From NCBI GenBank assembly GCA_964551945.1, contig CAZKFH010000004.1:30435-94434 (forward strand): a stretch of DNA of 64,000 nucleotides, written 5' to 3'. Shown here piece by piece: positions 4,755 to 26,673 of this stretch. Position 1 is the stretch's first letter. Each line of letters opens with the position of its first letter. Both the position numbers and the translations under genes were made by a program. This DNA is from an uncultured Actinomycetes bacterium. GTDB taxonomy: Bacteria > Actinomycetota > UBA4738 > CALAEC01. The notes below the pieces were generated by a model. That model did not search any database, was not told where the DNA came from, and saw nothing but the letters and a program-made list of their open reading frames with translations.

Positions 4755-4839
4755 CGCTCGCTTCTCAGTGGCCGTGGGCTCGAGGGCGAACCCGTCGGTC
4801 GAGGGAGGCGTCACGGACGGCGATTCTAGCGGCGGCCGG

Positions 4840-6138: not shown

Positions 6139-6145
6139 CAGCCCA

Positions 6146-7632: not shown

Positions 7633-7640
7633 GCTGGAAT

Positions 7641-9356: not shown

Positions 9357-9598
9357 TCCCAGATCCGCTCCAGGTGCCACCGGCCGGAGCGCCGGTCCTG
9401 ATAGATGTCGCAGACCGCGCCGCCCCGCGCCTCCACCCGCCAGTACTCGCGGTCACGGCCGTCCTCCCACCACCGGCCCTCGATCCGCCAGCGGCCGATC
9501 ACGTCCGCGACCTGGTACTGCCGGGAACGCCAGCGGAACGCGGCGGGCATGCCGGCGTCACGCTCGACCTTGACCTCCTCGTCGTACCGGATCCCCAC
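9353..9598 (-). CDS. Small Trp/Arg-rich hypothetical protein, predicted SOS-inducible
   Basis: 3' part of listed ORF 9353..9859; candidate starts GTG 9598 (81 aa) or ATG 9550 (65 aa: MPAAFRWRSRQYQVADVIGRWRIEGRWWEDGRDREYWRVEARGG...). LexA box 10 nt upstream of the GTG. Convergent 4-nt overlap with paralog 1. Confidence 0.45.
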   Translation of the reverse strand: MGIRYDEEVKVERDAGMPAAFRWRSRQYQVADVIGRWRIEGRWWEDGRDREYWRVEARGGAVCDIYQDRRSGRWHLERIWD

Positions 9599-9608
9599 CT
9601 TCGCCCCC

Positions 9609-9624
9609 TCGAACGTATGTTCGA
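9609..9624. promoter_or_regulatory. LexA (SOS) operator TCGAAC-N4-GTTCGA
   Basis: Perfect palindrome TCGAACGTATGTTCGA in the 380-bp gap between two phosphodiesterase paralogs, immediately upstream of the minus-strand small ORF. Confidence 0.65.
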
Positions 9625-9737
9625 CCGGACCTGTGAAGGTACTCCGGAGCCATTTGGGTGTCAAGCCGAGCCTGACGGCCCAACCGCGCCTCGATAGACT
9701 TCCGCGTTCCCATGACCCTTGACCCCACGAGCATTTC

Positions 9738-11387: not shown

Positions 11388-14300
11388 CGAAGACCGGCCG
11401 CTCCTGGGCAGCGGTCGCGACCGTCACCGCGATCGTGGCGGTGATGGGGTGGCAGTTCTTCACCGACGCGTCTCGCGCGGTGCCGGCGTTCGACACCGCG
11501 TACTACGAGTGGCGCGTCGAGTACCTCTTGGCCGAGGAGCCCGGCGCGCTGATCGACCTGCGAGGGGCGGACGGCGCGCTCGCCAGCGGGTACCGCGTCG
11601 CTGAGCCGGTGCTGGGAGCGCTCCTGCGAACGGTCGGCGGGGTCGACGACTCCGTTCCGTCGGTCGTGCTCTCGATCCTGTTCCGCGTGCTGTGCGCGCT
11701 GGGGATGGCTGCGTTCGCGTGGCGGCACCGGAGGAACTGGCTCCTCTTCTACCTCACCCTGCTGACGATCCCGGCGCTGTTCCTGCTGCAGCGGTTCTTC
11801 GGCTACATGGACAACTTCATGACGGGGGCTCTGCTCGCGGGAGCGCTCGTGCTGCTCGACCGGATGCGGGAGTCCTGGGGGGCACGGATCGCCGTCACCT
11901 TGTTCTTCTTCCTCTCGGGGCTGAGCCATCCGACAACCCTCGTGATCCTGTTGCTGTCTCTCGGTGCCGTCGCGGTGTACCGGTTCGTACGGGAGCGGTC
12001 GCTCCTCAAGGCCCTGCAGTCGGAGGGCCTCGTCATCGCGACCGGCACGGTCTCGGTGATCATGACCGCGGCGTTCTGGTTGGGAGGCCTGTGGGGTCCG
12101 ACGTCCTCGTTCAGCGACGCGGCCGTCCCACCCCCGGCCGACGTCGACTATTTCGTCAACCGAAGCCTCGGCGTGATGAAGAACCTCCAGCCCTTCGACC
12201 CGGCCACCGCCCCGGACTGGATGGTGCTGCTTGGCGTCGCCGCGCTCGGCGCCCTGATGCTCGCGGGGCTGGTGCACCTTGTTCGGCGCATCGGCAAGGA
12301 CCGCGAGTACTTCGCGGAGATCACAGTCGGCTGGACGCTCCCGCTCCTGGGGATGCTCGGGTTCCTGGTCGGCTTCGCGTACCCGTACTTCCGCTTCTTC
12401 AACGCGACGCTCGCTCCTCTGTCGCTCGCGGCGCTCGGGCTGGCGCTGTTCATCGCGGGCGCACGGAAGATCGGCGGGCAGCGGCTCGCGGTGCTGGCGC
12501 TCGTGGCCGTCGTGGCCCTCCTCGGAGGCTGGTGGTACCGCGGCCTGTCGGCGTGGAACGAGACGGGGACGTGGCTCACGCCCGAGATCCGAACGACCAC
12601 CTCCGCGCTGAACGGCTACCTCGAAGCCGACCCCGACGTTCGGGCACTCATGGTGGTCGACGCCCAGGGCGAGTCGCAGGTCTCCTATGGCGCCTACAAG
12701 GAGTACCTGAACGCGACGTACGCGGGGATCGACGGAGAGAACATCGACCGCGTCACGTTCTTCTTCGGCCGCATCGAGGACCTCGAGGCCGGTCAGGCCA
12801 CGGAACTCCCCGGCAACGACGTCTACAACACGATCGCCACTGAGACCGCGAAGGAGGCACTCGCGGTCCTCGAGGAGGACAACGTCGTCGTGTTCCTGCC
12901 AGCCGAGATGAACACCCCCTCCTCAAACGAGGAATACCTGGGTGAATGCACCGAGGTCATCTTTCGGACCGGGACGTTCTTGAGCGACACCCAACCGTGT
13001 TCAGAGGTCGGGAACAGCGGTCTCTACGCGGTCCCCGGCTTGTCGTCATCTGAGATCGACGAAGCTTCCTTCCGAAGCGCTTTTGAAGCCGGCGCGACGG
13101 CCGCCTCGCAGGCGACCACCTTCGCAACCAATCCACCGGGGCCCTTCGAGAACATCGGTTCGACGCTGCTGGCAACGCTGAGGCTCGCGCTCCTCTTCCT
13201 GCTTCCCGGATGGCTCTTCTACCGGAGGTTCGAGCGGCGCTCGTTCCCCGAGGCACTCGCGCTCGTGCCGTTGTTCTCGATCGCGGCGGTGACCACGATC
13301 GGGGTCTTCGCGATGGCGATCGTCCGCTCGCCGTTCAGCCCGACCATCGGATGGGCATCGTGGGGCATCGCCGTGCTCATCGCGGCATTCTGGAGGCTCC
13401 CCGCAGGCATCCGCCGCCGTCGCGATGCGCTCTTCGCCGGTCCCGCCCGGCTGATCGACTCCACCGCCCTGCTCTTCAAGAAGCGCGACTTCACGGCATT
13501 GATGGGCGCGCAGTGGCTCGCACAGGCCGCGGACGGGCTCGTCGCGGCATCGATCGCGAAGCTCATCACGTTCGGTGGGCAGAGCGGCTTGGACGTCGAG
13601 GCCGCGGGCTCGCCGCGCGACGCGCTGGTGATCGTGCTGCTCACCTTCCTGCCCTACACCCTCTTCAGCCCGTTCCTCGGAGTCGCGATCGACCGCGGCG
13701 ACCGACGGAAGCTGCTGATCTGGGCGAACGCCGTGCGGACCGTGATCCTCGCCGCGATCGTGGTGCTCGGTCTCTCCACGATCGGCGACGCCGCGCTCTA
13801 CGTCTCGCTGCTCCTGGTTCTGGCCGGCACCCGTCTGTTGCTGGCGATCAAGAGCGCCGCGCTCCCGACGATCCTCGGCGGCCGTGACCTCCTGCAGGGC
13901 AACTCGATCTCCCAGGCCGGGAGCGCCCTGTTCCAGCTCTTCGGCGCGGGAGTCGGGCTCGTCGCGTCCGGGCTCCTGAACACGCGCGTGATCCTGATCG
14001 GCGGCGTGCTTCTCTACGCGGGAGCCACCGCTTCCTCGATCGCCGTTCGCAATCTCGCCGGCGACACGGGCAAGGACTCGCTCTCGGGCGAGCTTCGGCG
14101 GGTGTTCGGCAACATGATCGACGGCTTCAAGGAGGTGCGCCGCCGCGCGGCCGCCGGGATCGGCCTGCTCTCTTTCCTTACGGTGCGAAGCATGCTGACG
14201 ATGGTCGTCCTCGCGACCGGCTTCGCGTCCCGCGAGCTGATCGAGGCAGAGGGCCTCACCTCAACCGCGATTCCCGGTCTCGCCGGAGTGCTCGGGGCCG

Positions 14301-14731
14301 GCCTCGGATTCGTCATCGCGCACAACGTTCGTGAGCGCGTCGCGGCGGCTCGGATCGTCAGTGGTGCCCTGATCGTCGGTGCGATCGGCATGCTCGCGTT
14401 CGGCGGGATCGTGTCGATCCTTGGGATCTCGCTGATGGCATTCTCGGTGGGTCTCGCGTTCTTCCTCGGCAAGGTCGGGGTCGACACGATGATGCAGGAG
14501 GCCCTCGACGACCGGTTCCGAGGACGCGGCTTCAGCCTTCAGGACATCGCGTACAACATCTCCTGGCTGCTGCCGGCGTTCGTGCTGTACCTCTTCGTGG
14601 GTGAGAACTTCGACCGTGTACGGATCCTGCTCGTGATCGCGGGCGTCGTGTTCCTGGCGGTGGCGCTGCTGATCGGGTTCGCCGCGCGGCGCCTGCCCGT
14701 TACGGGAAAGGAACCGACGCGGGCGACGTGA
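11384..14731 (+). CDS. Large fusion membrane protein: N-terminal ~650-aa polytopic domain with a big extracytoplasmic loop (GT-C-like glycosyl/lipid transferase architecture, low confidence) fused to a C-terminal 12-TM MFS-type transporter domain
   Basis: 1115 aa; ATGA overlap with paralog 2 stop (translational coupling). N-domain has many hydrophobic helices, a first-loop DTAYYEWRVEY acidic motif and a ~250-aa soluble segment (residues ~400-650). C-domain (from ~FKKRDFTALMGAQWLAQAADGLVAAS...) has MFS-like paired 6+6 TM organisation with basic interhelix loops. Confidence 0.65.
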   Translation: MTKTGRSWAAVATVTAIVAVMGWQFFTDASRAVPAFDTAYYEWRVEYLLAEEPGALIDLRGADGALASGYRVAEPVLGALLRTVGGVDDSVPSVVLSILFRVLCALGMAAFAWRHRRNWLLFYLTLLTIPALFLLQRFFGYMDNFMTGALLAGALVLLDRMRESWGARIAVTLFFFLSGLSHPTTLVILLLSLGAVAVYRFVRERSLLKALQSEGLVIATGTVSVIMTAAFWLGGLWGPTSSFSDAAVPPPADVDYFVNRSLGVMKNLQPFDPATAPDWMVLLGVAALGALMLAGLVHLVRRIGKDREYFAEITVGWTLPLLGMLGFLVGFAYPYFRFFNATLAPLSLAALGLALFIAGARKIGGQRLAVLALVAVVALLGGWWYRGLSAWNETGTWLTPEIRTTTSALNGYLEADPDVRALMVVDAQGESQVSYGAYKEYLNATYAGIDGENIDRVTFFFGRIEDLEAGQATELPGNDVYNTIATETAKEALAVLEEDNVVVFLPAEMNTPSSNEEYLGECTEVIFRTGTFLSDTQPCSEVGNSGLYAVPGLSSSEIDEASFRSAFEAGATAASQATTFATNPPGPFENIGSTLLATLRLALLFLLPGWLFYRRFERRSFPEALALVPLFSIAAVTTIGVFAMAIVRSPFSPTIGWASWGIAVLIAAFWRLPAGIRRRRDALFAGPARLIDSTALLFKKRDFTALMGAQWLAQAADGLVAASIAKLITFGGQSGLDVEAAGSPRDALVIVLLTFLPYTLFSPFLGVAIDRGDRRKLLIWANAVRTVILAAIVVLGLSTIGDAALYVSLLLVLAGTRLLLAIKSAALPTILGGRDLLQGNSISQAGSALFQLFGAGVGLVASGLLNTRVILIGGVLLYAGATASSIAVRNLAGDTGKDSLSGELRRVFGNMIDGFKEVRRRAAAGIGLLSFLTVRSMLTMVVLATGFASRELIEAEGLTSTAIPGLAGVLGAGLGFVIAHNVRERVAAARIVSGALIVGAIGMLAFGGIVSILGISLMAFSVGLAFFLGKVGVDTMMQEALDDRFRGRGFSLQDIAYNISWLLPAFVLYLFVGENFDRVRILLVIAGVVFLAVALLIGFAARRLPVTGKEPTRAT

Positions 14732-16475
14732 GGTCGCCCTCCGGGTACTCGCCCGGACCCGCTGCACCCACTTGCGCGTCTGTCAGCGCGCCCAGGTAGT
14801 CGCCGGGAAACGCGCCGGCGAAGACCAGCCGATCGAGCTCCTCATCGGAGATCTTCGAGCGATCCGCGTCCTTCGGCAGACCGTCGCCGTAGCGGTATTC
14901 GCCCACGAACCGCGCGACGTCCTCGAGCGTGATGCCAGCGACGTCCATGGCCCCCCGATCGAGGAACAGGCCCGACGGGGTCACCTTCTGCACGATCTCG
15001 CGACCGAAGTACGCGTCGACGTCCTGGCCGAGCACGTCGGGGTGGATGCGAAGGCCGCCGGTGGTCTCCGGGAGCGGCGTCTGGCCGTGATCCGCGGTGT
15101 AGGCAAGCACCCACTCCCCCTTGCCGACCTCCCGGTCGAGCGTGTCGACGATCTCTCCGAGCAGCTGATCTTGCGCGCGCAATACCTCCTCCTCCTCGGG
15201 CGCGACCATGTTCCAGAGGTGACCGCCGAAGTCGGTCGGCTTCAGCTCGACGAACAGCAGGTCCGTGACGTCATCGTCGCCGAACGGCTCGCGGCGCATC
15301 ATCTCGAGCAGCGCCTGTCCCTGATGGATGACGAACGCCGGGGTCGCGGGGATGACCTTCGGGTCCTGCAGGTCGTACTCGTTCCACATCCCGTCGAGCT
15401 TGCCGTCCTCGGCGTCCTGCTCGTCGAGCCGCGCGCGCAGATCGTCCTCGCCGGGGAGGTAGTCGGGAACCTCGTACAGCTCCTCGTTCGCGAAGAACTC
15501 GCCGACCCCCTCGTCGGGGTTCCATAGAACCGCGACGTCGCGATCAGCGCCGGTCGGCTGAGCACCGTGACTCATCATCCCCAGGTGCCAGGACTCGTAG
15601 CCGATCATCCCCACCCAGGCCTCGTTGTTCGTGTCGAGATCCCACTGATCGGCCAACGTCGTATCGAGCAGCAGCTGAGGGTCGGCATCGTGCTCGAAGA
15701 AGAGATCGCCGACACTTCCGTCCGGGAGCCGACCGGTGATCTCCGCCATACCGTGACTGCTCGGGTACCGCCCGGTCCCCATGTTCGCGTGGATCGCTGA
15801 GGTGACTGCCGGCGCCGAGCCGATCGTGGCGTTCGTGAACACCGTCCCCTCATCCATCAGCCTGCGTAGCTCGGGCCACGCATCAGGCCAGCGTTCGAGC
15901 AGATTCCAGCCTCCCCCGTCGTACGCGACGAGGACGACGGCTCGCGGCCGCGTGGTGAGCGGCGCGGGCTGAGGCTCGGGAGGGGCAGGTGGGAGTGCCT
16001 CTCGAAGAGGCAGTCCTGCGGGGTCGAAGTAGTGAAGCGGGTGCCCGAACCGGGTCGTCTTCCCCAGCAGCCAGCCGAAGGACGGCGCCAGGTCAGTCAC
16101 ATCAACAGAGCGATCCGAGGGTGGCCCCGGCGTGATGTGCCCAGGCCCGTAGAGGACGATCGGGACGCGCTGGTGATAGCTCCATGGCGTCGGGTGAGTG
16201 GTGCTCGGGTCGGCGTCATCGGTGCCGAGACCTACGCCGCTCCAGCGGACCACCACGTTGTACGGCTCCGGCACGAACGCGATATCGGTCGAGGTCGCCG
16301 GGTAGTACCCCCGCCGCAGGGCCGTGAGGACGTCCCCGCCGACCGCCTCGGCCATCTGGTCGAGTGTGCGGGACTCTTGGGGCGGCCCCGGGACGGGACG
16401 AGGCTCTTCCTCCGTGCAGCCCGCAGCGAGGAGGAGAACCGTCAGGACGAGGGCCGCACGGGGCGCGGGAAGCAT
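14700..16475 (-). CDS. Type I phosphodiesterase / nucleotide pyrophosphatase-like lipoprotein, paralog 3
   Basis: 3' part of listed 811-aa ORF; start ATG 16475 (MLPAPRAALVLTVLLLAAGC lipobox). Motifs VVLVAYDGGGWNLL, GSAPAVTSAIHANMGTGRYPSSHG, YTADHGQ. 32-nt convergent overlap with the fusion gene. Confidence 0.75.
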   Translation of the reverse strand: MLPAPRAALVLTVLLLAAGCTEEEPRPVPGPPQESRTLDQMAEAVGGDVLTALRRGYYPATSTDIAFVPEPYNVVVRWSGVGLGTDDADPSTTHPTPWSYHQRVPIVLYGPGHITPGPPSDRSVDVTDLAPSFGWLLGKTTRFGHPLHYFDPAGLPLREALPPAPPEPQPAPLTTRPRAVVLVAYDGGGWNLLERWPDAWPELRRLMDEGTVFTNATIGSAPAVTSAIHANMGTGRYPSSHGMAEITGRLPDGSVGDLFFEHDADPQLLLDTTLADQWDLDTNNEAWVGMIGYESWHLGMMSHGAQPTGADRDVAVLWNPDEGVGEFFANEELYEVPDYLPGEDDLRARLDEQDAEDGKLDGMWNEYDLQDPKVIPATPAFVIHQGQALLEMMRREPFGDDDVTDLLFVELKPTDFGGHLWNMVAPEEEEVLRAQDQLLGEIVDTLDREVGKGEWVLAYTADHGQTPLPETTGGLRIHPDVLGQDVDAYFGREIVQKVTPSGLFLDRGAMDVAGITLEDVARFVGEYRYGDGLPKDADRSKISDEELDRLVFAGAFPGDYLGALTDAQVGAAGPGEYPEGDLTSPASVPFP

Positions 16476-16526
16476 GGAGCGGGATGATACCCGTCGTTGT
16501 GGAGCCGCTCGCGCGACAATGGCCGC

Positions 16527-17804
16527 ATGCTCTCCCGAAGACGGCTGCTCGTCGCCGTGGGTATCGCTGCCCTGATCACCCTCCCGGCCGGTGTGCTCGC
16601 CGGCCTTTGCGTCGGCAATGCCTGCCGCCGCGAGGAGCGAGCGACGGGACGCGTCCCCTTCTGCTCGCTTCCGCAGGACCTCCGCTCCCTGATCGCGGCC
16701 GGCTTTCGTGACGGACGCTCCCCGCACGTCATGACGGTGACGAGCCGGGAGGCGAATGCCGAGCCGGCCGAGATGCCGGTCGCGTTCGCCGGAACCGGCG
16801 TGACGCCGGGGGCCGAGGTTCCGGCCGGCACGACCCTCGACGCGGTGGCACCGACGCTGGCCGAGATCATCGGGCTCCGCCGGCCCCACCCCGGGGTGCG
16901 CTCGGGCGAACCGGTGAGCGGGGTCGCATCCGGCGAGGCTCCGCGACTCGTCGTGCTCGTCGCGTGGAAGGGAGTGACGAGCCGGCTGCTCGAGAGAAGT
17001 CCTCAGCTGTGGCCCGTTCTCCGGGGGCTGTTCGAGGACGGTGCGGGCACGCTCGAGGCGACGCCGGGCTCCCTTCCGCTCGACCCCGCAGCCCTGCTGG
17101 CAACGGTCGGGACCGGTGGCCTTCCCCGCGATCACGGCATCACGGGCTCGCTGATCCGGAACGATCAGGGTGACGTCGTCGAGCCCTGGTCCGAGGGCGC
17201 GCCGTTCTCGGTGATCGCGACGGTCGCGGACGACCTCGACGAGCTGGGACAGCAGGCGCCGCGGGTCGGCCTGATCGGTACCGAGGAGACGGACCGGGGG
17301 CTAGCCGGAGGGAACTGGTACGTCGAGAACGACACCGACGACGTCGTGATCGAGCCAACCCTCGAGGGGCAGGCCATCGCCGCGGACACTCTATTGAACT
17401 CCGGGTACGGCGCCGACGCGACCACCGACCTGCTCGCGGTCGCGATGGAGGGGCCCATCCCCCGGCTCGACCAAACCTTGGGACGCCTCCTGGTTGCCGC
17501 TGAACGCACGAGCGGAGGATCGCTCGCGGTGGCCGTCTTGGGAGCTCCATCCGTCACGCGCCAAGGAGCGGCGGCGTTGACTCCGGCCGAGCTCGAGACG
17601 GAGCTCCAGAATCGCCTCGAAGCCGACGTGGTCGAGGCTATCGTGGGGAACGGTGTGTTCCTCGACCAGGAAGCGATGACGGTGAGCGGCCTGTCGGACG
17701 ACCGTGTCGTCGTGGCGCTCCGAGGTCTCGAGACCCCGACGGGCGAACGCGTGTTCCTCGACGTCTTTCCCTCCATCGCGGTGACGTTCGCGAGGTATTG
17801 CTGA
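16527..17804 (+). CDS. Degenerate (likely catalytically inactive) paralog of the phosphodiesterase-like family
   Basis: Signal-like N-terminus (MLSRRRLLVAVGIAALITLPAGVLAGLC). Colinear with the paralogs, but the metal-binding Asp is replaced (LVVLVAWKGVTSRLL), the nucleophile block is mutated (GSLPLDPAALLATVGTGGLPRDHG) and the C-terminal ADHG motif is absent. Divergently transcribed from paralog 3 across a 51-bp gap. Confidence 0.6.
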   Translation: MLSRRRLLVAVGIAALITLPAGVLAGLCVGNACRREERATGRVPFCSLPQDLRSLIAAGFRDGRSPHVMTVTSREANAEPAEMPVAFAGTGVTPGAEVPAGTTLDAVAPTLAEIIGLRRPHPGVRSGEPVSGVASGEAPRLVVLVAWKGVTSRLLERSPQLWPVLRGLFEDGAGTLEATPGSLPLDPAALLATVGTGGLPRDHGITGSLIRNDQGDVVEPWSEGAPFSVIATVADDLDELGQQAPRVGLIGTEETDRGLAGGNWYVENDTDDVVIEPTLEGQAIAADTLLNSGYGADATTDLLAVAMEGPIPRLDQTLGRLLVAAERTSGGSLAVAVLGAPSVTRQGAAALTPAELETELQNRLEADVVEAIVGNGVFLDQEAMTVSGLSDDRVVVALRGLETPTGERVFLDVFPSIAVTFARYC

Positions 17805-18814
17805 TGTCGGTCGCGAACGCAACACCGCAGCCGCAGACGGTCGCGAGCCGGAGAACGCTCGTCGCCGTCGGCGCGGGACTGCTCGTCACGGCGGTCGGGC
17901 TTCGCGCCCTCGACGCGCTCGGCGTGGCCTCGCTCAGGAACTTCCTGATCGTCTTCGCGTCGCTCCTCGTGGAGGCGCTCCCGTTCATCGTGCTCGGCGC
18001 GGCGGTCTCGGCGTTGATCGAGGTCTTCGTCCCCGCGAGCGTCTTCGCCAAGCTGGCCCGCCTGCCCCGCGCGCTGCAGCAGCCGGTCGCGGGACTCGGG
18101 GGCTTCGCGTTCCCGGTCTGCGAGTGCGGCTCCGTGCCGGTCGCGCGCCGACTGGTCGCGAAGGGCATGGCACCCGCGGCCGCGATCACGTTCATGCTGG
18201 CCGCGCCCATCCTCAACCCCGTCGTCCTGGCCGCGACCGCCATCGCGTACCGGGGTCGAGACATCCTGTGGCCGATGGTGCTCGGGCGTGCGGGACTCGG
18301 CTTCCTGGTGGCGATCGTCGCGGGTTGGGTGGTCGGGACGGGTCGAGGCCAGGACATCCTTCGAGGTGGGGCATCCCGTGGTGGACTTCACGACCACGGC
18401 GACGTGCCGGAGGCGCGCTGGGCCGAGTACTTCGGCCACCTCGCGAGTGACTTCACGCTCCTTGCCCGTTACCTCGTGATCGGCGCGGCGATCGCAGCCG
18501 CGCTGCAGACGTTCGTTCCCCAGCAGGTGCTTGGCTCTGTCGCCGAGACCCCGATCCTCAATGTCGCGGCGCTCATGGTCCTCGCGTCGCTCCTGTCCCT
18601 ATGCTCCGAGTCGGATGCGTTCGTCGCTGCCTCCTTCGTGCAGTTCGGGCCCTCGGCGCAGCTTGCCTTCCTCGTGGCCGGTCCGATGATCGACGCGAAG
18701 CTGGCCGTGCTCTACGGCGGAACGTTCCGCCGCGGCTTCGTGCTGACGATCACGGCCGCGGTCTTCTCGTTGACGCTCGCCGGTGCCCTGTGGTTCCAGG
18801 TGGCGTTCGGATGA
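17798..18814 (+). CDS. Permease, DUF318/ArsP-like family (CxC motif) - first component of a two-gene permease
   Basis: 338 aa, ~8 TM; conserved ...FAFPVCECGSVPVARRL... motif characteristic of the DUF318 predicted-permease family. Confidence 0.7.
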   Translation: MLMSVANATPQPQTVASRRTLVAVGAGLLVTAVGLRALDALGVASLRNFLIVFASLLVEALPFIVLGAAVSALIEVFVPASVFAKLARLPRALQQPVAGLGGFAFPVCECGSVPVARRLVAKGMAPAAAITFMLAAPILNPVVLAATAIAYRGRDILWPMVLGRAGLGFLVAIVAGWVVGTGRGQDILRGGASRGGLHDHGDVPEARWAEYFGHLASDFTLLARYLVIGAAIAAALQTFVPQQVLGSVAETPILNVAALMVLASLLSLCSESDAFVAASFVQFGPSAQLAFLVAGPMIDAKLAVLYGGTFRRGFVLTITAAVFSLTLAGALWFQVAFG

Positions 18815-19512
18815 GGCGCTGGAGCGGCTCCCGGCTCGCGCAGACCCTGGCGCTCGCGGCGTGGGGCGGCCTCTTTTGGTTCCTGCTCTTCGCCGACCGG
18901 ACCTCCCTCTATCTTTCCTCCCGGACGGCGTGGGTCGTGCCGGTCGGGGCGATCGGCCTCACCATCGCGGCGCTCGGTCGCCTCGCCACGGCACGCACGC
19001 CGAGCCCCGGTCCGCTGGGTCGAGGCACCGTCTGGGCCGTCGGATTCGTGCTGCTTCCCGTCGTCGCGATCCTGGTGCTACCCCCGGCGGCGCTCGGCTC
19101 GTATGCCGCATCCCGCCGCTCGCTTTCCTCTGGACTTGTCGCGAGCGCTCCTGCGCTCGAGGCCGGCGGCACCGTCACACTCGCCGCCGTTGCCGCTGCG
19201 GGCTGGTCGGAGGACGCGAGACGTTCGCTCGTGTCACGCGCGGGCAGCCGTGTGTCCTTCGAGGGCATCGTGACGAAGCGAGCCGGCCAGGCCGCGGACG
19301 AGTTCATGCTCACGAGGTTCATCGTCTCCTGCTGCGTCGCGGACGCGCTCAGCGTGCAGGTGCGCGTGGTCGGAGCGCCCCCTGGAGAGTTCGAGGAAGA
19401 CGACTGGGTGCGGGTCAGCGGCGCCTTCTACCCGGTGGGTCAGGAGGTCGTGGTCGATGCGTCCGAGATCCAGCCGATCCCCCAGCCGGACGATCCGTAC
19501 CTGAACGTCTAG
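18811..19512 (+). CDS. TIGR03943/DUF1980-family membrane protein (partner of DUF318 permeases)
   Basis: 3' part of listed ORF 18601..19512; ATG 18811 overlaps the upstream stop (ATGA). N-terminal 2-3 TM then a soluble domain with a CC pair (FIVSCCVADA); this family is canonically adjacent to DUF318. Confidence 0.6.
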   Translation: MRRWSGSRLAQTLALAAWGGLFWFLLFADRTSLYLSSRTAWVVPVGAIGLTIAALGRLATARTPSPGPLGRGTVWAVGFVLLPVVAILVLPPAALGSYAASRRSLSSGLVASAPALEAGGTVTLAAVAAAGWSEDARRSLVSRAGSRVSFEGIVTKRAGQAADEFMLTRFIVSCCVADALSVQVRVVGAPPGEFEEDDWVRVSGAFYPVGQEVVVDASEIQPIPQPDDPYLNV

Positions 19513-21233
19513 ACGGGCACGTCCGGCGGCGAGGTCAGGTCGGACTCGGGATACATCCCCGGGCCGAGCGCCTCGATCTCCGCGTTGCTGAGCGACTCGA
19601 GGAACGGACCGGGAAGCGCGGCGGCGAAGACGCGCTCGTTCAGCATCGCCGCCGGGATATCGTCGGCGTCGAAGCCAGTTGGGAGCCCCTCCACGTAGCG
19701 GTAGTCCCCGATCCAGCGCGCGATCTCCTCCAGCGTGAGCCCCTCCTCCTCCATCTCCTCAAGGTCCACGTACATGTCGGAGGGCTGGGCTGCCTCCACG
19801 ACACCGAATCGGTCGTCGACATCCTCTGCGAGCTCGTATCGGTCGATGCGCAGGCCGTCGTAGTTCTCCGCGACCGGCGTCTGACCGTGGTCGGCGGTCA
19901 CCGCGAGCACGTACCGTCCCTCCCCGATCCGCCGGTCGAGGGTCTCAACCAGCTCCCCCAGGATCCGGTCCTGCTCCTGCCAGACGGTCTCGAACTGCGT
20001 GCTCTCCATCCCCCAGAAATGGCCCGCGAGATCCCCGGTCTTGAACTCGAAGAACGCCATGTCGGTGATGTCGTCCAGGCCGATCGGCTCCCGTCGAGCC
20101 ATCCGCAGGATGACCTGTCCCGAGTACCACGCGAACGCCGGGTTCGCGGTGAACTGATACGTGTCGGCCTCCAGTGGGCTGTCGCCCCACCGGTCGTCGC
20201 GCGCGCCATCGGAAGCATCTAGCTCCGAGAGCCGAGACTCGAACCTCGATCGCTCGGGGAGGTAGTAAGGGAGCTCGTACGCCTCCGTGTTCGTCCAGAA
20301 CGTGGTCTCCTCCCGGTCCCACATCACGGCCGGATCGGCGTCTCCCCCGCCGGGCGCGCTGGCGCCGCGCCCCATCATCGCGAGGTGCCACGTCTCGTAG
20401 CCCGCGACGCCCACCCAGGCGCGGTTGCCGGTCGAGCGGTCCCACGCGTCGGCCAGGGTCTCGGCGTTCATCAGACGGAAGTCGGCGCGCTCGAAGCTGA
20501 TGTCGCCGATCGTCCCGTCGGGAAGGCGGCTCGCGTTCTCCGCGATCCCGTGGGTGCGGGGGAACGTGCCGGTTCCCAGAGTGGCGTGCACCGGCGCGGT
20601 CACGCTCGGTGCCGACCCGTTGGTGGCGTTCGTGAACGTCGTTCCGTCTGCCATGAGATCGGCCTGGGCGGGCCAGGCGTCGGGCCACTCCTCGAGGACG
20701 TTCCAGCCCCCGCCGTCGAAGACCGCGGTGACGATCGCCCGGGGAGGCTCGGGCCGCTGGGCCTTTGGAACGAGCGCCTCGCGCAGGACGCGACCGGCGG
20801 GAGCATCGAACTCAAAGTCCATCAGCTCCGCGAACGTGGGCGCCAGATCTGCCATGGTCACCGCGCGCTCCGCGACGATGTGCGAACGAATGTATCCGGG
20901 CCCGTAGAGAGTGATCGGCACGCGCTGGTGGTAGGACCAGGGCGTGGCGTGGGTCGTCCGGGGGTCCCGCACCCCGGCGCGCCCGCCCTCCCAGTTGCCC
21001 AGCACGTTCCACGGCTTGGGGATGAGCGCGATATCGCCCGATCGTCCCGGCACGTAGCCGCGCACGATGGACCGCATCACGTCGGTCCCGAGCGCCCGGG
21101 CCATCTGCATGAGCGTCGGTCCGAAACGCGGCTCACCGTCGTCCGAACATCCCGTGCTCACGAGCATGACGGCCGTCACGAGGGCTATCAGAAGGAAGTG
21201 GGCATGCTTCACACGCCGTCGGAGAGGGGTCAC
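19509..21233 (-). CDS. Type I phosphodiesterase / nucleotide pyrophosphatase-like lipoprotein, paralog 4
   Basis: GTG start 21233; signal peptide plus lipobox (LVSTGC). Motifs IVTAVFDGGGWNVL, GSAPSVTAPVHATLGTGTFPRTHG, VTADHGQ. Most similar to paralog 3. 4-nt convergent overlap with the TIGR03943 gene. Confidence 0.75.
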   Translation of the reverse strand: MTPLRRRVKHAHFLLIALVTAVMLVSTGCSDDGEPRFGPTLMQMARALGTDVMRSIVRGYVPGRSGDIALIPKPWNVLGNWEGGRAGVRDPRTTHATPWSYHQRVPITLYGPGYIRSHIVAERAVTMADLAPTFAELMDFEFDAPAGRVLREALVPKAQRPEPPRAIVTAVFDGGGWNVLEEWPDAWPAQADLMADGTTFTNATNGSAPSVTAPVHATLGTGTFPRTHGIAENASRLPDGTIGDISFERADFRLMNAETLADAWDRSTGNRAWVGVAGYETWHLAMMGRGASAPGGGDADPAVMWDREETTFWTNTEAYELPYYLPERSRFESRLSELDASDGARDDRWGDSPLEADTYQFTANPAFAWYSGQVILRMARREPIGLDDITDMAFFEFKTGDLAGHFWGMESTQFETVWQEQDRILGELVETLDRRIGEGRYVLAVTADHGQTPVAENYDGLRIDRYELAEDVDDRFGVVEAAQPSDMYVDLEEMEEEGLTLEEIARWIGDYRYVEGLPTGFDADDIPAAMLNERVFAAALPGPFLESLSNAEIEALGPGMYPESDLTSPPDVPV

Positions 21234-21280
21234 GGGATGGGTAGAATATGCGCTCCCGGCCCACTGGAGAGACGATCCCT

Positions 21281-22468
21281 ATGCGTGTTCTGATCCTTGG
21301 CGGCGACGGCTATCTCGGCTGGCCGACCGCCATGCACTTCTCGCAGCGGGGCCACGACGTCTGCGTCGTCGACAACTACCTCCGCAGGCGCGCGCACCAG
21401 GAGAACGGCACCGACTCGCTCACGCCGATCCCGGACGACCTCCAGGCCCGCGTGAGCGCATGGCGAGACGTCAGCGGCCGTGAGATCGATCTGGTCGAGG
21501 GCGATCTCTGCGACGCAGGCTTCGTCGACCAGCTCTTCCGAGCGTTCGAGCCCGAAGCGATCGTCCATTACGGCGAGATGCCGTCCGCGCCGTACTCGAT
21601 GGTGTCGCAGAGGCATGCGGTATTCACCCAGTACAACAACGTGATCGGAACCCTCAACGTGCTGTTCGCGATGCGAGACCTGGCTCCTGATTCCCACATG
21701 GTGAAGCTCGGCACGATGGGCGAGTACGGCACGCCGAATATCGATATCGAGGAGGGCTTCCTGGAGGTCGAGCACAAGGGCCGCAAGGACGTGCTTCCGT
21801 TCCCGAAGCAGCCGGGCTCCTTCTATCACGCGTCCAAGGTGCATGACTCCGTCAACATCCACCTGGCCTGCAAGATCTGGGGGCTTCGAGCCACCGACCT
21901 GAACCAGGGCATCGTCTACGGGATCCAGACCGAGGAGACGAAGCTCGATCCGCGCCTGCTCACCCGCTTCGACTACGACGAGATCTTCGGAACCACACTG
22001 AATCGCTTCTGTCTCCAGTCCGTGATCGGTCACCCACTGACGGTGTACGGCACCGGCGGACAGACCCGCGGCTTCCTCAACATCGTCGACACCCTGCGGT
22101 GCGTCGAGCTCGCCGCGTCTAACCCGCCGCCCGGCGGCGAGTACCGGGTGTTCAACCAGTTCACGGAGAGCTTCACGGTGCTGGAACTCGCCGAGCTCGT
22201 CGCGAAGTCGGCCAAGGAGATTGGCGTTACCGCAACGATCGAGCACGTCGAGAACCCTCGCATCGAAGCGGAGGCTCACTACTACCGAGCGACCAACACG
22301 CGTCTCATGGATCTCGGCCTGCAGCCCCACTACTTGTCGGAGACGCTGATCGAATCGATGTTCGACATCATCGGTCGGTACCGCGATCGCGTCGACGAGA
22401 AGCACATCATGCCGCGCACGCGCTGGCGCCCTCGCGAGTCGACGCCCGCCGACGCCTCACACCTCTAA
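21281..22468 (+). CDS. sqdB: UDP-sulfoquinovose synthase
   Basis: Near-colinear identity blocks with plant/cyanobacterial SQD1/SqdB: LILGGDGYLGW, VDN..RR, LTPI, HYGE..SAPYSM, TQYNNVIGTLNVLFA, HMVKLGTMGEYGTPNIDIEEGF, YHASKVHDS, ATDLNQG.VYG, RFDYDEIFGT.LNRFC, GHPLTVYG.GGQTRG, PRIEAE.HYY, HYLS. ATG 21281 with GGAGAG upstream. Confidence 0.85.
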   Translation: MRVLILGGDGYLGWPTAMHFSQRGHDVCVVDNYLRRRAHQENGTDSLTPIPDDLQARVSAWRDVSGREIDLVEGDLCDAGFVDQLFRAFEPEAIVHYGEMPSAPYSMVSQRHAVFTQYNNVIGTLNVLFAMRDLAPDSHMVKLGTMGEYGTPNIDIEEGFLEVEHKGRKDVLPFPKQPGSFYHASKVHDSVNIHLACKIWGLRATDLNQGIVYGIQTEETKLDPRLLTRFDYDEIFGTTLNRFCLQSVIGHPLTVYGTGGQTRGFLNIVDTLRCVELAASNPPPGGEYRVFNQFTESFTVLELAELVAKSAKEIGVTATIEHVENPRIEAEAHYYRATNTRLMDLGLQPHYLSETLIESMFDIIGRYRDRVDEKHIMPRTRWRPRESTPADASHL

Positions 22469-23524
22469 GTGCAGGAACTGGTCGCACTCAGGATCGTCGG
22501 CGGCCTTTTCGCCGCGATCCTCCTCCTCTCCGCAATCTTTCGATATCGCGGGCGGCGGATCACCCGCCTCAACCTGCTGATCTCCTGCACGCTTGCCGTC
22601 GCCGGCCTCTTGCTCGCAGCGTTCCCCGGGTTCTTCGACCCGCTGTTCGACCTGTTCAACTTCCGCCGCGGTGGGGGGCGCCGCCTCCTGGCAGTGCTCG
22701 TCTTTGGCAACATCGTGCTGCTCCTGCTCCTGCTCCGGAACCAGACCGAGACTGACGTGGTGCGCCGCGATTTCCAGCTGTTGATGGAGTGGATGGGCGT
22801 GAATTCCCTCGAGAAGGAGGACCTGGACGGGCTCCCGGCCGGAGGGCGTGTCGTCGTTGTTCTTCCGGCGCACAACGAGGCGTCGAACGTCGGGGCGGTG
22901 CTGAACCAGATGCCGGAGAAGGTTGACGGCCATCCGGTGGTCTCCCTGGTGGTCGACGACGCGTCGGAGGACGAGACCGCCGACGTCGCGAGGAAGGCCG
23001 GAGCCCTCGTCGCCCGCCTGCCGATCCGTCGCGGTGGTGGACAGGCGGTTCGCGTCGGATACGAGCTCGCGCTCAAGCTCGACGCCGAGGTGGTGGCGTC
23101 TCTCGACGCCGATGGGCAGCACGATCCGAGCGAGCTGAAGCTCCTGGTCGAGCCGATCCTCCGTGGCGAGTTCGACATGGTGCAGGGCTCGCGCGTGCTC
23201 GGGCGCTACGAGAAGGAGAGCCACATCCGCCATCTCGGCGTGCTGGTCCTGTCACGACTGGTCTCGCTCATGACCGGGACGCGGGTCACCGACGTCTCCA
23301 ACGGCTACAGGGCGCTTCGCAAGGAGACCCTCCAACGTCTGATCCTGCAGCAGGATCAGTTCTGGACGAGCGAGATCATCATCGAGGCTCTCCGTCAGCG
23401 CGCGAGGATCAAGGAGGTCCCGATCAGCGTCCGCGCTCGCGCGAGCGGCGTGACGAAGAAGCCGAAACCGTTCAAGTACGGCTGGAGCTTCCTCAAGGTG
23501 ATCGTCAAGACCTGGCTCCGCTGA
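22469..23524 (+). CDS. Membrane-anchored family-2 glycosyltransferase (DPM1/Ppm1-like polyprenyl-phosphate sugar synthase type)
   Basis: GTG start immediately after the sqdB stop. N-terminal 2-3 TM helices, then a GT2 catalytic domain (VVVLPAHNEASNVGAVL..., DADGQHDP DxD region, VSNGYRALRK). Architecture resembles polyprenyl-P-mannose/glucose synthases. Confidence 0.7.
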   Translation: MQELVALRIVGGLFAAILLLSAIFRYRGRRITRLNLLISCTLAVAGLLLAAFPGFFDPLFDLFNFRRGGGRRLLAVLVFGNIVLLLLLLRNQTETDVVRRDFQLLMEWMGVNSLEKEDLDGLPAGGRVVVVLPAHNEASNVGAVLNQMPEKVDGHPVVSLVVDDASEDETADVARKAGALVARLPIRRGGGQAVRVGYELALKLDAEVVASLDADGQHDPSELKLLVEPILRGEFDMVQGSRVLGRYEKESHIRHLGVLVLSRLVSLMTGTRVTDVSNGYRALRKETLQRLILQQDQFWTSEIIIEALRQRARIKEVPISVRARASGVTKKPKPFKYGWSFLKVIVKTWLR

Positions 23525-23545: not shown

Positions 23546-23734
23546 ATGGCTCGTAAATCTCGGCTCAATCCGGGAGGTTTCGCCTCCGGAGGCGTCCCGC
23601 CGAACGCGCAAGGCGGCTGGAACCACAGAGATGCGCCGCTCAACCATCGTGGGACGACGATCTGGATCGCCGTGATCGGCCTGCTCGTCGTTGTCGGCAT
23701 CGCCCTCTTCGCCTACGGCTTCGCGACCGACTGA
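23546..23734 (+). CDS. Possible small membrane protein (very uncertain)
   Basis: 62-aa ORF with a single C-terminal hydrophobic helix (TTIWIAVIGLLVVVGIALFAYGF); no clear Shine-Dalgarno; lies in the 250-bp gap between the GT2 and thiE. Confidence 0.2.
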   Translation: MARKSRLNPGGFASGGVPPNAQGGWNHRDAPLNHRGTTIWIAVIGLLVVVGIALFAYGFATD

Positions 23735-23773: not shown

Positions 23774-24430
23774 TCAGATCCGTTCATTTCTGCGAGTGAG
23801 GCTGCGAACCAGGGCCGCAACTGCAGATCTCGGATCGGATGCTTCGGTGACGGCGCGGACGACCACGATCCGCCTCACCCCCGCCTCTTGGATCTGCTGC
23901 AGGTTGCCTTCGTTGATGCCGCCGATCGCGAACCAGGGCCTCGTCTCGCCGCTCTTCGCTGCGTAACGCACGTACTCGAGACCCGCGGCCGGTCGGCCGG
24001 GCTTCGTCGGCGTCTCCCAGACGGGCCCCGCGCACAGGTAGTCGGCTTCGGGCACCGCCGCGTCCCACTGGTCTGGCGTGTGGGTGGAGAGGCCGAGGAT
24101 GGCATTCCCGCCGAGGATCGCGCGGGCCTCGTCGAGCGGCGCGTCCTCCTGGCCCAGGTGGACTCCGTCGGCATCGAGCGCCAAGGCGACCTCCGGGCGG
24201 TCGTTGAGGATGAACAAGGCGCCGTTGCGCGCGGCTGCTTCACGGAAGATCTCGCCCCACCGCAGGAGGTCGGCGACCTCCGCATCCTTCTCCCGGAGCT
24301 GGATGATGTCGACGCCGGCATCGAGGATCTCGGCGAGGAACTCCGCCAGGTCACCCTGTTGCTCTCGGGCGCCCGTAACGACGTACAGGCTCGAGCGGGC
24401 GAGACGCTCCCGCCGATCCGCCGGCTTCAT
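23774..24430 (-). CDS. thiE: Thiamine-phosphate synthase
   Basis: 218 aa; TMP-synthase motifs (LYVVTG, IIQLREKD, GADGVHLGQED, GLSTH, DYLCAGPVWETPTKPG, FAIGGI). Confidence 0.85.
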   Translation of the reverse strand: MKPADRRERLARSSLYVVTGAREQQGDLAEFLAEILDAGVDIIQLREKDAEVADLLRWGEIFREAAARNGALFILNDRPEVALALDADGVHLGQEDAPLDEARAILGGNAILGLSTHTPDQWDAAVPEADYLCAGPVWETPTKPGRPAAGLEYVRYAAKSGETRPWFAIGGINEGNLQQIQEAGVRRIVVVRAVTEASDPRSAVAALVRSLTRRNERI

Positions 24431-24627
24431 CCGCCGGCGACCGCGCGGACGAGCTCGATGCGATCTCCGTCCTCGAGGCTGACGTCGTCGTACCGAGCCC
24501 GCTGCAAGGGCTCGCCATTGCGCTCGACGATCACGAATCGAGGATCGAGCCCTCGATCGCGGATGAACTCGGCGATGGTTCTGGTGGCGGGGAGCTGGTA
24601 CGTCTCGCCGTTCGCGGTGACGTTCAC
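24427..24627 (-). CDS. thiS: Thiamine biosynthesis sulfur-carrier protein ThiS
   Basis: 66 aa (VNVTANGETYQL...DGDRIELVRAVAGG) ending in the diglycine typical of ThiS/MoaD; ATGA overlap with thiE. Confidence 0.75.
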   Translation of the reverse strand: MNVTANGETYQLPATRTIAEFIRDRGLDPRFVIVERNGEPLQRARYDDVSLEDGDRIELVRAVAGG

Positions 24628-24628
24628 G

Positions 24629-25846
24629 TCAGGAGGCGCGGAGCCCGCGCGCCACGCCGCTTGGAAGTGAGGGGTCTTCCCACACGGGCTCGTATCCGAG
24701 CGCCCGGAGCGACGCGGCAACCTCCGCGGGCAACCGCGTGTCCGCGACCTCGAACTGCTCCTCGGCCTCGCCTGGGTGCTCGTACCCGCCCGGCTCCGTG
24801 TGCGAGCCCGCGCTCGTGTGCGTGATGCCGATCCGGTGCAAGCCGTCGCGCAGCTCGGCGGGCTCGCGACTCGACAGGACCAGTCCCACATCCGGCAGCA
24901 AGAGCCGAAGCGCACAGATGTATTGGGCCAGATCGCGATCCTGAACCTCGATGCGCGGCTGGAACCCACTCGCGGAGGGACGGATGCGTGGTGCCGAGAC
25001 GGTCACCTGCGTTCGCCAGTACCGCTTCATCAGGAACCGAGCGTGCGCCGCCGTGACGATCGCCTCGGCCCGCCAGTCGTCGTACAGGCCGAGCAGTGCG
25101 CCCACACCCACACGACGTGCCCCGGCTCGTGCGGCGCGCTCCGGCCCGAGCAGCCGCCAGCGATAGTTGCGCTTGCGTCCCGCCAGATGCACCTCCGCGT
25201 ACCGCTGCGGGTCGTACGTCTCCTGGTAGATGACGACGCCCTCGCATCCCGCCGCGAGCAGGCGCCGGTAGTCGGCCTCGCCCCAGACCTGCACCTCGAT
25301 CGACAGGGAGGGAACGACCGCGGCGAGGGAACGAAGGTGCCGCTCGAGGAACTCGATGCCGGTCAGCCGCTCGTGCTCGCCGGTGAGCAGCAGGATCGAA
25401 CGGAACCCCTGCCCGGTCAGGTACCGTGCCTCCTCCAGAGCGTCGGCGTGCCCGAGCGTCTTGCGCGCGACCGGCAGGTTCTTCGCGAAGCCACAGTACC
25501 CGCACGTCGTCAGGCACTCGTTCGACAGATACAGCGGCGCGTACATGTGCATCGTTCGCCCGAATCGCGCAAGGGTCAGGCTGCGCGATGCCGATGCGAG
25601 ATCCTCGAGCCGCTCCCCCGCCATCGGGGAGAGCAGCGCCGCATAGTCCTCCAGCGTTCGGTCGAGCGGGCTCGTCGCGAGCGCCCGATCGACTCGCAAG
25701 GGATCGGCCGAAGATGAGACTTCGAGCAACGCGTCGAGCGGCAACCGGGCGAGCTCCCACGCGAACGTCGACGCCGGCCAGGGGGCCTCGAACCCATCGC
25801 GCTCGTCGATGGGAGCGGCCAGATCTTGGAGCGACTCGATCCTCAC
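24629..25846 (-). CDS. thiH: 2-iminoacetate synthase (tyrosine lyase) ThiH, radical SAM
   Basis: 3' part of listed ORF 24629..26071. CxxxCxxC cluster ([13 protein letters not shown]), ThiH/HydG/BioB-like body; GTG start 25846 overlaps the thiG stop (GTGA). Confidence 0.75.
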
Positions 25847-26673
25847 GGCTCGGTTACCCCCGGGTCCGCCTGCGAGGTGACGAGCTTGTCGAGGAACCCC
25901 GTTAACGGGCTTGACGCCTCGGCGGATGACCGCTCGAGTGGCTGCCCGGCCAGGAACGCCCCTCGTCCGGCCTCGACGCCGAGGCGGAACGCATCCGCCA
26001 TCCCCACAGGATCGCTCGCCACGGCGATCGCGGTATTGACGAGCACCGCGTCGCAGCCCATCTCCAGGCACTCGGCCGCGTGCGAGGGGGCGCCGAGGCC
26101 GGCATCCACGACCACCGGAACGTTCGCTTGCTCGAGGATGATCTGCACCGCGTCGCGTGTGCGCAGGCCCTTGTTCGAGCCGATCCAGGAACCGAGGGGC
26201 ATGACCGTCGCACAGCCCGCCTCCTCCAAGCGCTTCGCAAGGACCGGGTCGGCGCCGATGTACGGCAGGACGGTGAACCCGTCGGCGACAAGGAGCTCGG
26301 CCGCCTTCAGCGTCTCGATCGGGTCCGGCAGGAGGTAGCGCGGCTCCGGCGTGACCTCGAGCTTGACCCAGTCGGGCATCCCCGCGGCGCGTGCAAGACG
26401 GGCGAGCCGCACGGCCTCCCCCGCGTCCATCGCACCGGAGGTGTTCGGAAGGAGGAGATACCGCTCCGGGTCGATGAACTCGAGGATGTCCGGTCCCCCA
26501 GTGGCGTCGAGATCCACGCGGCGCAGCGCGACCGTGACCATCTCCGTCCCCGACGCCGCCAGCGCGTCGCGCATGACTTCATGGGAACCGAACTTGCCGG
26601 TCCCGAGGATCAGCCGGGACGAGAACGTCCGTCCGCCGATCTCGAGGGGGTCGGTGCCTGTCTGGGTGATCAT
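25843..26673 (-). CDS. thiG: Thiazole synthase
   Basis: 276 aa with ThiG signature regions ([49 protein letters not shown]). Confidence 0.9.

Follow-up and report, generated by a model that had tools for sequence, protein, structure and literature searches.

The sqdB gene of an uncultured Actinomycetes bacterium and the glycosyltransferase family 2 (GT2) gene that directly follows it are read here, with reasonable confidence, as a two-gene unit that would load sulfoquinovose (SQ) onto polyprenyl phosphate, from which a glycosyltransferase of the GT-C fold would then transfer the sugar to an acceptor in the cell envelope. Bacteria, in other words, probably place SQ on the glycans of their cell envelopes. 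The pair lies in a stretch of 64,000 nucleotides (GenBank assembly GCA_964551945.1, contig CAZKFH010000004.1, positions 30,435 to 94,434 of the forward strand), the whole of which is termed the window and which has a GC content of about 68%. Third-position GC frame analysis and the listing of open reading frames (ORFs) show two co-directional genes occupying 21281-23524. The GTG start of GT2 (22469) directly abuts the TAA stop of sqdB, as had been stated in an initial annotation made from the sequence, and both the sequence and the frame analysis bear this out. The start of sqdB is the ATG at 21281, where the 97% identical ortholog of locus L001 is also called to begin (loci retrieved from other genomes and metagenomes carry the prefix L); an ATG further upstream, at 21248, is unused by the orthologs. 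The pair and the domains of its second product are as follows.

21281-22468, plus strand: sqdB, 395 aa, predicted UDP-sulfoquinovose synthase (UDP-glucose and sulfite to UDP-SQ)
22469-23524, plus strand: GT2, 351 aa, fused GacJ-like/GacI-like protein, predicted polyprenyl-phosphate sulfoquinovosyltransferase
22469-22801, plus strand: N-terminal membrane domain of GT2, aa 1-111, of the DUF2304/GacJ/Rv3632 type
22847-23524, plus strand: GT-A catalytic domain (aa 127-321) and C-terminal amphipathic helix (aa 334-350) of GT2

The proposed pathway would begin in the cytoplasm, where SqdB makes UDP-SQ from UDP-glucose and sulfite, a step that is well supported. GT2, acting as an inverting enzyme, would then move SQ from UDP-SQ to undecaprenyl or decaprenyl phosphate, giving polyprenyl-phosphate-beta-SQ. 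This lipid-linked sugar would be flipped outward, possibly by the major facilitator superfamily (MFS) domain of a protein encoded at 11384-14731, and a GT-C enzyme would finally pass SQ to an extracytoplasmic acceptor. Candidates for the final step are the N-terminal domain of the same 1115-aa protein in the window and, in the Solirubrobacterales, PMT_2 enzymes whose genes lie between those of GT2 and SqdB. Possible acceptors are wall glycopolymers, lipoglycans and proteins, and the envelope would in this way gain a decoration that is permanently anionic and free of phosphate.

SqdB and its glycosyltransferase partner

The assignment of SqdB, which the initial annotation had called very strong, has stood up well. 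The whole of the NCBIfam model for UDP-sulfoquinovose synthase (NF041015, 1-384 of 384) aligned to the protein with an E value of 5e-145, and residues 2-383 matched the structure of Arabidopsis SQD1 (PDB 1qrr) colinearly at 3e-160 and 537 bits, with 57% identity over the full length. T145, Y182, H183 and K186, together with the NAD motif GGDGYxG, are invariant in the SqdB/SQD1 alignment; T145, Y182 and K186 are the catalytic residues of SQD1, and H183 is specific to the family. This near-orthology to characterised enzymes makes UDP-SQ a well-supported product and sets the first step of the pathway apart from the other three, which are deduced from family membership, conserved residues and gene context.

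The partner enzyme is neither SqdX (a GT4) nor SqdD (a GT8) and, as had been proposed at the outset, it joins N-terminal transmembrane (TM) helices to a DPM1-like domain; Pfam and the predicted fold both identify it as a GT2 of the GT-A type. PF00535 was found at aa 130-290 (E 7.5e-18), and the motif DADGQHDP stands at aa 213-220, its first six residues (213-218) aligning to 89-DADLQH-94 of the dolichol phosphate mannose synthase of Pyrococcus furiosus (PfDPMS), the best sequence match in the PDB, which is followed by ArnC. The best NCBIfam matches were AglJ (E 2.8e-33), PpgS (8.8e-26) and a haloarchaeal dolichyl phosphate (Dol-P) hexose transferase (7.5e-22), and the scores for HpnB, ArnC and processive synthases were far lower. 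Residues whose roles in PfDPMS have been described (PMC5526996) were mapped to GT2 through the pairwise alignment of the PDB search.

PfDPMS E12 (A-loop network): GT2 E137
PfDPMS D89, D91 and Q93 (metal and diphosphate site of DADLQH): GT2 D213, D215 and Q217
PfDPMS R117 and R131 (dolichol phosphate binding): GT2 R242 and R254
PfDPMS R202 and K208 (gating A-loop): GT2 R324 and K330

All of these GT2 residues are invariant in an alignment of 15 sequences with identities down to 40% and in a second of 48 sequences with identities down to 33%. An AlphaFold model of the protein (predicted local distance difference test score, pLDDT, 86.9) comprises three N-terminal helices, the GT-A domain and the C-terminal amphipathic helix, and its best fold matches include ArnC (2e-13), PfDPMS (4e-13) and GtrB. 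Taken together, these comparisons support the prediction that GT2 is a DPM1-like GT-A enzyme of the lipid-phosphate type, that is, a polyprenyl-phosphate glycosyltransferase.

The membrane domain offers a second line of evidence. About three TM helices are found at the N-terminus, corresponding to helices 2-27, 33-51 and 71-111 of the model, and DUF2304 (PF10066) was matched at aa 7-106 with an E value of 1.4e-4 and 22.6 bits, which is under the 25.5-bit cut-off; the same family is a precomputed assignment on many homologs of GT2. DUF2304 includes GacJ of Streptococcus pyogenes and Rv3632 of Mycobacterium tuberculosis, three-helix membrane proteins that bind and stimulate the undecaprenyl phosphate (Und-P) GT2s GacI and PpgS and that are fused to them in some bacteria (bioRxiv 10.1101/180810). 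Judged by these similarities, GT2 is a GacJ-like domain fused to a GacI-like enzyme, a predicted single-chain version of GacJ/GacI or Rv3632/PpgS.

Genomic linkage and the GT-C proteins

An alignment of SqdB was searched against one genome per GTDB species and the 80 closest SqdB loci were kept. Most are from uncultured Actinomycetota, mainly Thermoleophilia, with a few from Chloroflexota, Acidobacteriota and cyanobacteria. A full-length ortholog of GT2, membrane domain included, was found beside sqdB in 58 of the 80. At 27 loci it follows sqdB directly on the same strand, as it does in the window; it is divergent and adjacent at 14, and at a further 17 is divergent with PMT_2 genes in between, the gap being approximately 2.7-3.2 kb (1.2 kb in L043). 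Another five loci end inside the intervening genes. Since the adjacency of sqdB and GT2 recurs in three gene orders and in several phyla it is far beyond what would be expected by chance. The reverse search, in which an alignment of GT2 was run against metagenome contigs, retrieved 33 loci with a GT2 at least 41% identical; SqdB is present in 26, five more are truncated on the sqdB side, and one or two lack it. SqdB was absent near matches confined to the catalytic domain (30-39% identity), and distant full-length relatives (34-38% identity) are again near an SqdB, in this case 51-52% identical. These distant pairs occur in polysaccharide clusters on contigs of 33-54% GC, in a Magnetococcus genome and on a Thermodesulfobacteriota contig. 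Several DUF2304-GT2 members that have no SqdB nearby still adjoin PMT_2 genes, and the wider family looks like one of general lipid-phosphate sugar synthases not dedicated to SQ, of which the sqdB-linked members would be a subset.

The third component of the proposed unit appears in two forms. In loci of the Solirubrobacterales type one or two proteins of about 450 aa are encoded between GT2 and sqdB, and these belong to PMT_2, a GT-C family, with scores of 46.8 and 41.3 bits against a Pfam cut-off of 26.1; they are present in 22 loci of the genome set (L001-L082) and at several metagenome loci. The clade closer to the window has a different polytopic protein beside the pair, of approximately 650-720 aa, with no Pfam family and sometimes in several copies, and this family is represented in the window and at 14 other loci. 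Its representative in the window is the N-terminal part of the 1115-aa product of 11384-14731, the sole large polytopic protein encoded there, which is divided as follows.

11384-13303, plus strand: GT-C-fold domain, aa 1-640 of the 1115-aa protein, candidate extracytoplasmic sulfoquinovosyltransferase
13490-14731, plus strand: MFS domain of the same protein, candidate flippase for the lipid-linked sugar

A BLAST comparison of the N-terminal domain with the polytopic proteins adjacent to the pair gave no match and profile-profile comparison was needed, which showed them to be homologous with a probability of 99.9% and an E value of 9.7e-33 over 599 columns. The domain was modelled with a pLDDT of 87.9 and a predicted template modelling score (pTM) of 0.90, and the GT-C fold is confirmed in that model, so the upstream GT-C-like/MFS fusion described in the initial annotation is upheld in both its parts. 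D37, in the segment FDTAYYEW, is invariant in 37 sequences, and conservation of the corresponding Asp in a sister group is 90% or more; D37 stands at the start of the first loop helix after TM1, the position of the GT-C catalytic acid, and on the basis of the fold would face the outside. No Pfam match at E<=0.1 and, outside the MFS part, no NCBIfam match was obtained for the domain. Its family is a small one, with 475 representatives in a set of 1.84 billion proteins, and its homologs occur both fused to MFS and alone. The MFS part was recognised by PF07690 (aa 730-1063) and TIGR00900 (aa 703-1064) and, weakly, by the MFS region of PRK08633; no solved structure matched it in sequence. Flipping of glycolipids and lysolipids is known for MFS proteins.

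A number of further gene arrangements were seen among the retrieved loci. In Magnetococcus sp. DMHC-6 (L164, GCA_039908535.1, 236-8003) an operon-like run comprises a Polysacc_synt_2 dehydratase, SqdB (52% identical), a 640-aa protein without a Pfam family that could be a further unrecognised GT-C, a B12-binding radical SAM enzyme, the DUF2304-type GT2 and an LPG_synthase_TM protein. A sulfotransferase gene follows the DUF2304-GT2 homolog in a Thermodesulfobacteriota locus (L165, 4627-8842) and in a metagenome locus (L122, 5738-7742); in L165 genes for PMT_2, LPG_synthase_TM and Wzm/Wzt also flank the homolog and SqdB is encoded 5 kb away, and both clusters seem to be devoted to sulfated or sulfonated surface glycans. 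The LPG_synthase_TM genes of L164 and L165 hold a place equivalent to that of a flippase and are candidates for that function. There is a third context for sqdB, without DUF2304-GT2, in two Solirubrobacterales metagenome-assembled genomes (MAGs; L063, 6090-10289, and L080, 6039-10287), where its neighbours are a PgaC-like processive GT2 of about 640 aa with multiple TM helices on one side and a polysaccharide-deacetylase-like gene on the other; by eye this GT2 has a motif of the Q-x-x-RW type, and the product may be an SQ-containing exopolysaccharide. Next to GT2 and convergent with it, 22 loci of the Solirubrobacterales type (among them L027, 6562-6864) encode a small protein, about 100 aa long, which has two TM helices and a zinc ribbon at its C-terminus. 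The gatCAB, ndh, ilvBN and menFDCA genes near the pair in Solirubrobacterales were regarded as housekeeping synteny and placed outside the system.

Neighbouring genes and competing explanations

The 20 kb upstream of sqdB hold a gene of the phospholipase C (PLC)/acid-phosphatase family, five genes of the alkaline-phosphatase superfamily, two GT4 genes and a pyridoxal phosphate (PLP)-dependent decarboxylase. These, and the smaller features on either side of the pair, are listed below.

1963-3393: PLC/acid-phosphatase-family gene (PF04185)
3390-5345, minus strand: PLP-dependent decarboxylase
4840-6237 and 6146-7921 (minus strand): GT4 genes
7641-9356: alkaline-phosphatase-superfamily/PafA-like gene
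9738-11387, plus strand: PafA-like gene (PF01663, E 2e-28; alk_phos_PafA, E 1e-29)
14700-~16400, minus strand: alkaline-phosphatase-superfamily/PafA-like gene
16497-17804: alkaline-phosphatase-superfamily gene, weak match
19509-21233, minus strand: PafA-like phosphodiesterase with a lipoprotein-like N-terminus (PF01663, E 1.9e-28; alk_phos_PafA)
21234-21280: divergent intergenic region, with a TAGAAT -10-like hexamer at 21242-21247 upstream of sqdB and a putative promoter role
23546-23734, plus strand: 62-aa ORF 3' of GT2, one C-terminal TM helix, uncertain gene

The stop of the gene at 9738-11387 overlaps the start of the GT-C/MFS gene by 4 nt and the two are probably in the same operon, whilst the phosphatase at 19509-21233 is divergent from sqdB at a distance of 47 bp, an arrangement also seen in L001. 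The stretch 1963-21233, unusually dense in phosphoesterase genes, looks like a phosphate-scavenging and lipid-remodelling island, and this neighbourhood, which is limited to the closest relatives of the window, hints at a role under phosphate scarcity. A TAnnnT-type -10-like hexamer occurs in much the same place in the other upstream regions compared, and most of the conserved bases upstream of sqdB are coding sequence for the N-terminus of the divergent phosphatase. Control of sqdB by PhoP through a PHO box was rejected, as no G[GT]TCA[CT] direct repeat at 11-nt spacing was found anywhere in the window. Among the phosphatase genes there is an ArsP_1-family permease with a TIGR03943/DUF1980_C putative permease subunit (17798-19512), a pair conserved in L001. 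In L106 (5860-12474) a full-length GT2 homolog (43% identical) has no SqdB nearby, and next after it come a second GT2 and two PF01663 genes; these phosphatases echo the phosphodiesterase neighbourhood of the window, and some such genes might serve the chemistry of envelope polymers and not phosphate scavenging. On the opposite flank of the pair, the 62-aa ORF is called as a gene in L001 and L002 (55% identity to both); it was not found in more distant loci, a Pfam search gave no match, and it was rejected as a component of the system because it is kept in the nearest relatives only and belongs to no family. Directly 3' of GT2 on the minus strand there follows a thiE-thiS-thiH-thiG cluster (23774-26673) and then housekeeping genes; thiH denotes the radical-SAM route (TIGR02351, E 2e-124), and thiazole synthesis of the ThiH type is typical of anaerobes.

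Three other explanations of the pair were weighed. It is conceivable, if rather unlikely, that GT2 is itself a terminal sulfoglycolipid synthase, placing beta-linked SQ on diacylglycerol or another lipid, or that polyprenyl-phosphate-SQ is the end product, in either case as a substitute for phospholipid when phosphate is scarce. The classical role of sqdB is in sulfolipid synthesis, some GT2 enzymes (cyanobacterial MgdA) do glycosylate diacylglycerol, the phosphatases and the PLC/acid-phosphatase-family gene of the window fit phosphate-sparing lipid remodelling, and no SqdX ortholog was found in the window when the SqdX-like protein of L069 was used as query, its best match being the GT4 at 6146-7921 with 29% identity over 143 aa. 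However, all the closest relatives of GT2 take polyprenyl phosphate as acceptor, the phosphate-binding arginines of DPMS are kept, and a GacJ-like domain is found specifically in Und-P GT2 systems. GT-C enzymes depend on lipid-phosphate donors, and their genes turn up repeatedly beside the pair; the phosphatase genes, for their part, accompany sqdB in the closest relatives of the window only. Somewhat less likely again is that GT2 charges the carrier with some other sugar, glucose from UDP-glucose (the substrate of SqdB) being one example, and leaves UDP-SQ to another transferase such as a GT4. Three DUF2304-GT2 members (L106, L118 and L163) do lack SqdB nearby, no sulfonate-binding residue could be identified in GT2, and the window does contain two GT4 genes, which the initial annotation had put forward (at 4.8-7.2 kb) as transferase candidates. 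Those genes are present as described; a specific link to sqdB is not borne out, as they lie at least 13 kb away, and they were rejected as SQDG (sulfoquinovosyldiacylglycerol) synthases because their similarity to the SqdX-like protein is of a generic GT4 kind and they are not kept beside sqdB in other loci. Against a different sugar it must also be set that GT2 orthologs of at least 41% identity are almost always beside sqdB, whatever the gene order, and that in the window the two genes are translationally coupled, a pattern typical of consecutive steps in a pathway. That the SqdB homolog makes some other 6-modified UDP-hexose, so that the system carries a different sugar altogether, is highly improbable. 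Its score against NF041015 (483.2 bits) is below the equivalog cut-off of 575 bits, but the protein matches SQD1 over the full length, keeps all the catalytic residues, and shares 61-64% identity with SqdB from a cyanobacterium and from a Caldilineaceae locus which also encodes an SqdX-like GT4. None of these three explanations accounts for the association with GT-C genes as well as does the transfer of SQ through polyprenyl phosphate.

A variety of observations nevertheless weigh against that transfer. GT2 scores below the cut-offs of all the named NCBIfam equivalogs (AglJ 115.6 bits against 325, PpgS 90.7 against 370, the Dol-P hexose transferase 77.4 against 375 and ArnC 34.5 against 529), so that it is an ortholog of none of them and constitutes a separate subfamily. 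In the alignment Ser135 of PfDPMS is opposite a gap, and its K178 is replaced by W299. The initial annotation had also considered that GT2 might group with soluble polysaccharide enzymes; by sequence and family its best matches are polyprenyl-phosphate glycosyltransferases, but in the fold search soluble GpgS (GT81) came nearly equal to ArnC and DPMS. As the fold search fails to separate lipid-phosphate GT2s from GpgS, the case rests on sequence families, residues, the GacJ-like domain and context. The DUF2304-GT2 proteins of L106, L118 and L163 count here too, and an SQDG synthase may be encoded elsewhere in the genome. The GT-C/MFS gene of the window is approximately 6.5 kb from sqdB in a separate operon, and its link to sqdB is drawn because its homologs adjoin the pair elsewhere; no GtrA or Wzx flippase was identified. 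Finally, the donor and acceptor specificities proposed for the pathway are those suggested by neighbourhood and homology only.

A broader reading can be offered more tentatively. It is possible, though doubtful as a whole, that the sqdB-GT2-GT-C module is a widespread and undescribed bacterial pathway in which SQ decorates wall glycopolymers, lipoglycans or surface proteins by way of polyprenyl-phosphate-SQ and, without spending phosphate, keeps the envelope negatively charged under phosphate scarcity, using a new GT-C fused to an MFS flippase. On the same tentative reading the module, in this lineage set among secreted phosphatases and partly co-transcribed with them, might be a sulfonate counterpart of the switch from teichoic to teichuronic acid.

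Comparison with known systems

SQ is among the most abundant organosulfur compounds and has been attributed almost entirely to SQDG, the thylakoid lipid of phototrophs; to our knowledge, the only other use to have been described is in the N-glycan of Sulfolobus. A literature search, incomplete in its coverage and so amounting to absence of evidence, found no polyprenyl-, undecaprenyl- or dolichyl-phosphate SQ and no SQ in bacterial wall or envelope polymers. It had been suggested at the outset that SQ glycoconjugates are essentially undescribed in Actinomycetota, and no such glycoconjugate was found to have been reported; sqdB homologs in the phylum have, however, been listed earlier in the literature, SACE_5690 being one example. 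If the proposed pathway is correct it would provide a new lipid-linked sugar and the first route by which a C-sulfonated sugar enters bacterial envelope glycoconjugates. Among the SqdB loci obtained from Thermoleophilia and related MAGs the majority carry the module, and abundant heterotrophic, non-photosynthetic soil Actinomycetota (Thermoleophilia) would, on the same condition, be a source of environmental SQ for the sulfoglycolytic food web. There would also be a predicted function for a GT-C family absent from Pfam and for many proteins whose sole annotation is 'glycosyltransferase family 2' or 'MFS transporter'.

The canonical SQDG pathway has the same first enzyme (SqdB/SQD1), but its transferase, SqdX/SQD2 (GT4) or SqdD (GT8), is a retaining enzyme acting on diacylglycerol, whereas GT2 is a predicted inverting GT-A enzyme of the lipid-phosphate class. 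The Agl3 pathway of Sulfolobus acidocaldarius, to which the initial annotation had appealed, likewise uses UDP-SQ for a glycoconjugate that is not a lipid, an N-glycan with beta-linked SQ. The analogy is a loose one, since it holds for the non-lipid use of UDP-SQ and not for a lipid-phosphate donor: the membrane glycosyltransferase Agl1 is thought to add the sugar directly from UDP-SQ to the dolichol-linked glycan, and the pathway is archaeal, with neither a Dol-P-SQ intermediate nor a GT-C step described.

Closer parallels are found among systems that make other sugars. In S. pyogenes the GacI/GacJ-GacK-GacL system adds the N-acetylglucosamine (GlcNAc) side chain of the group A carbohydrate; a GT2 makes the sugar-phosphate-undecaprenol, the DUF2304 partner GacJ, fused to it in some species, stimulates the reaction, and the GT-C GacL transfers the sugar outside. 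The sugar comes from UDP-GlcNAc, GacI and GacJ are separate proteins and the flippase GacK is Wzx-like, whereas the system considered here would use SQ and has a single polypeptide with its GacJ-like part at the N-terminus and a GT-C of another family fused to MFS. PpgS (Rv3631) with Rv3632 in M. tuberculosis, which provides galactosamine for arabinogalactan, is an actinobacterial example of a polyprenyl-phosphate-sugar synthase with a DUF2304 helper, Rv3632 being a homolog of GacJ that stimulates PpgS, and PpgS is the second-best NCBIfam match of GT2. Its product is used by the GT-C Rv3779. It differs in its donor, UDP-N-acetylgalactosamine (UDP-GalNAc), in its separate proteins and in the absence of sqdB, and GT2 scores far below its cut-off (90.7 against 370 bits).

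The proposed combination of a GT2 synthase, a flippase and a GT-C would be shared with Gtr (GtrA/GtrB/GtrV), with ArnC/ArnT and with three-component transmembrane glycosylation in general (reviewed in PMC8035078 and PMC11127046). In GtrB and ArnC the TM helices follow the GT-A domain, whereas in GT2 they precede it, and the sugars of such systems are glucose, 4-deoxy-4-formamido-L-arabinose (Ara4FN) or pentofuranoses. We know of no sulfonated sugar in any three-component transmembrane glycosylation system. The class of mechanism to which the pathway would belong, multi-component transmembrane glycosylation, is already well known; what is new is the predicted sugar, the tight and widespread linkage of GT2 to sqdB, and the GT-C family without a Pfam entry that is fused to MFS.

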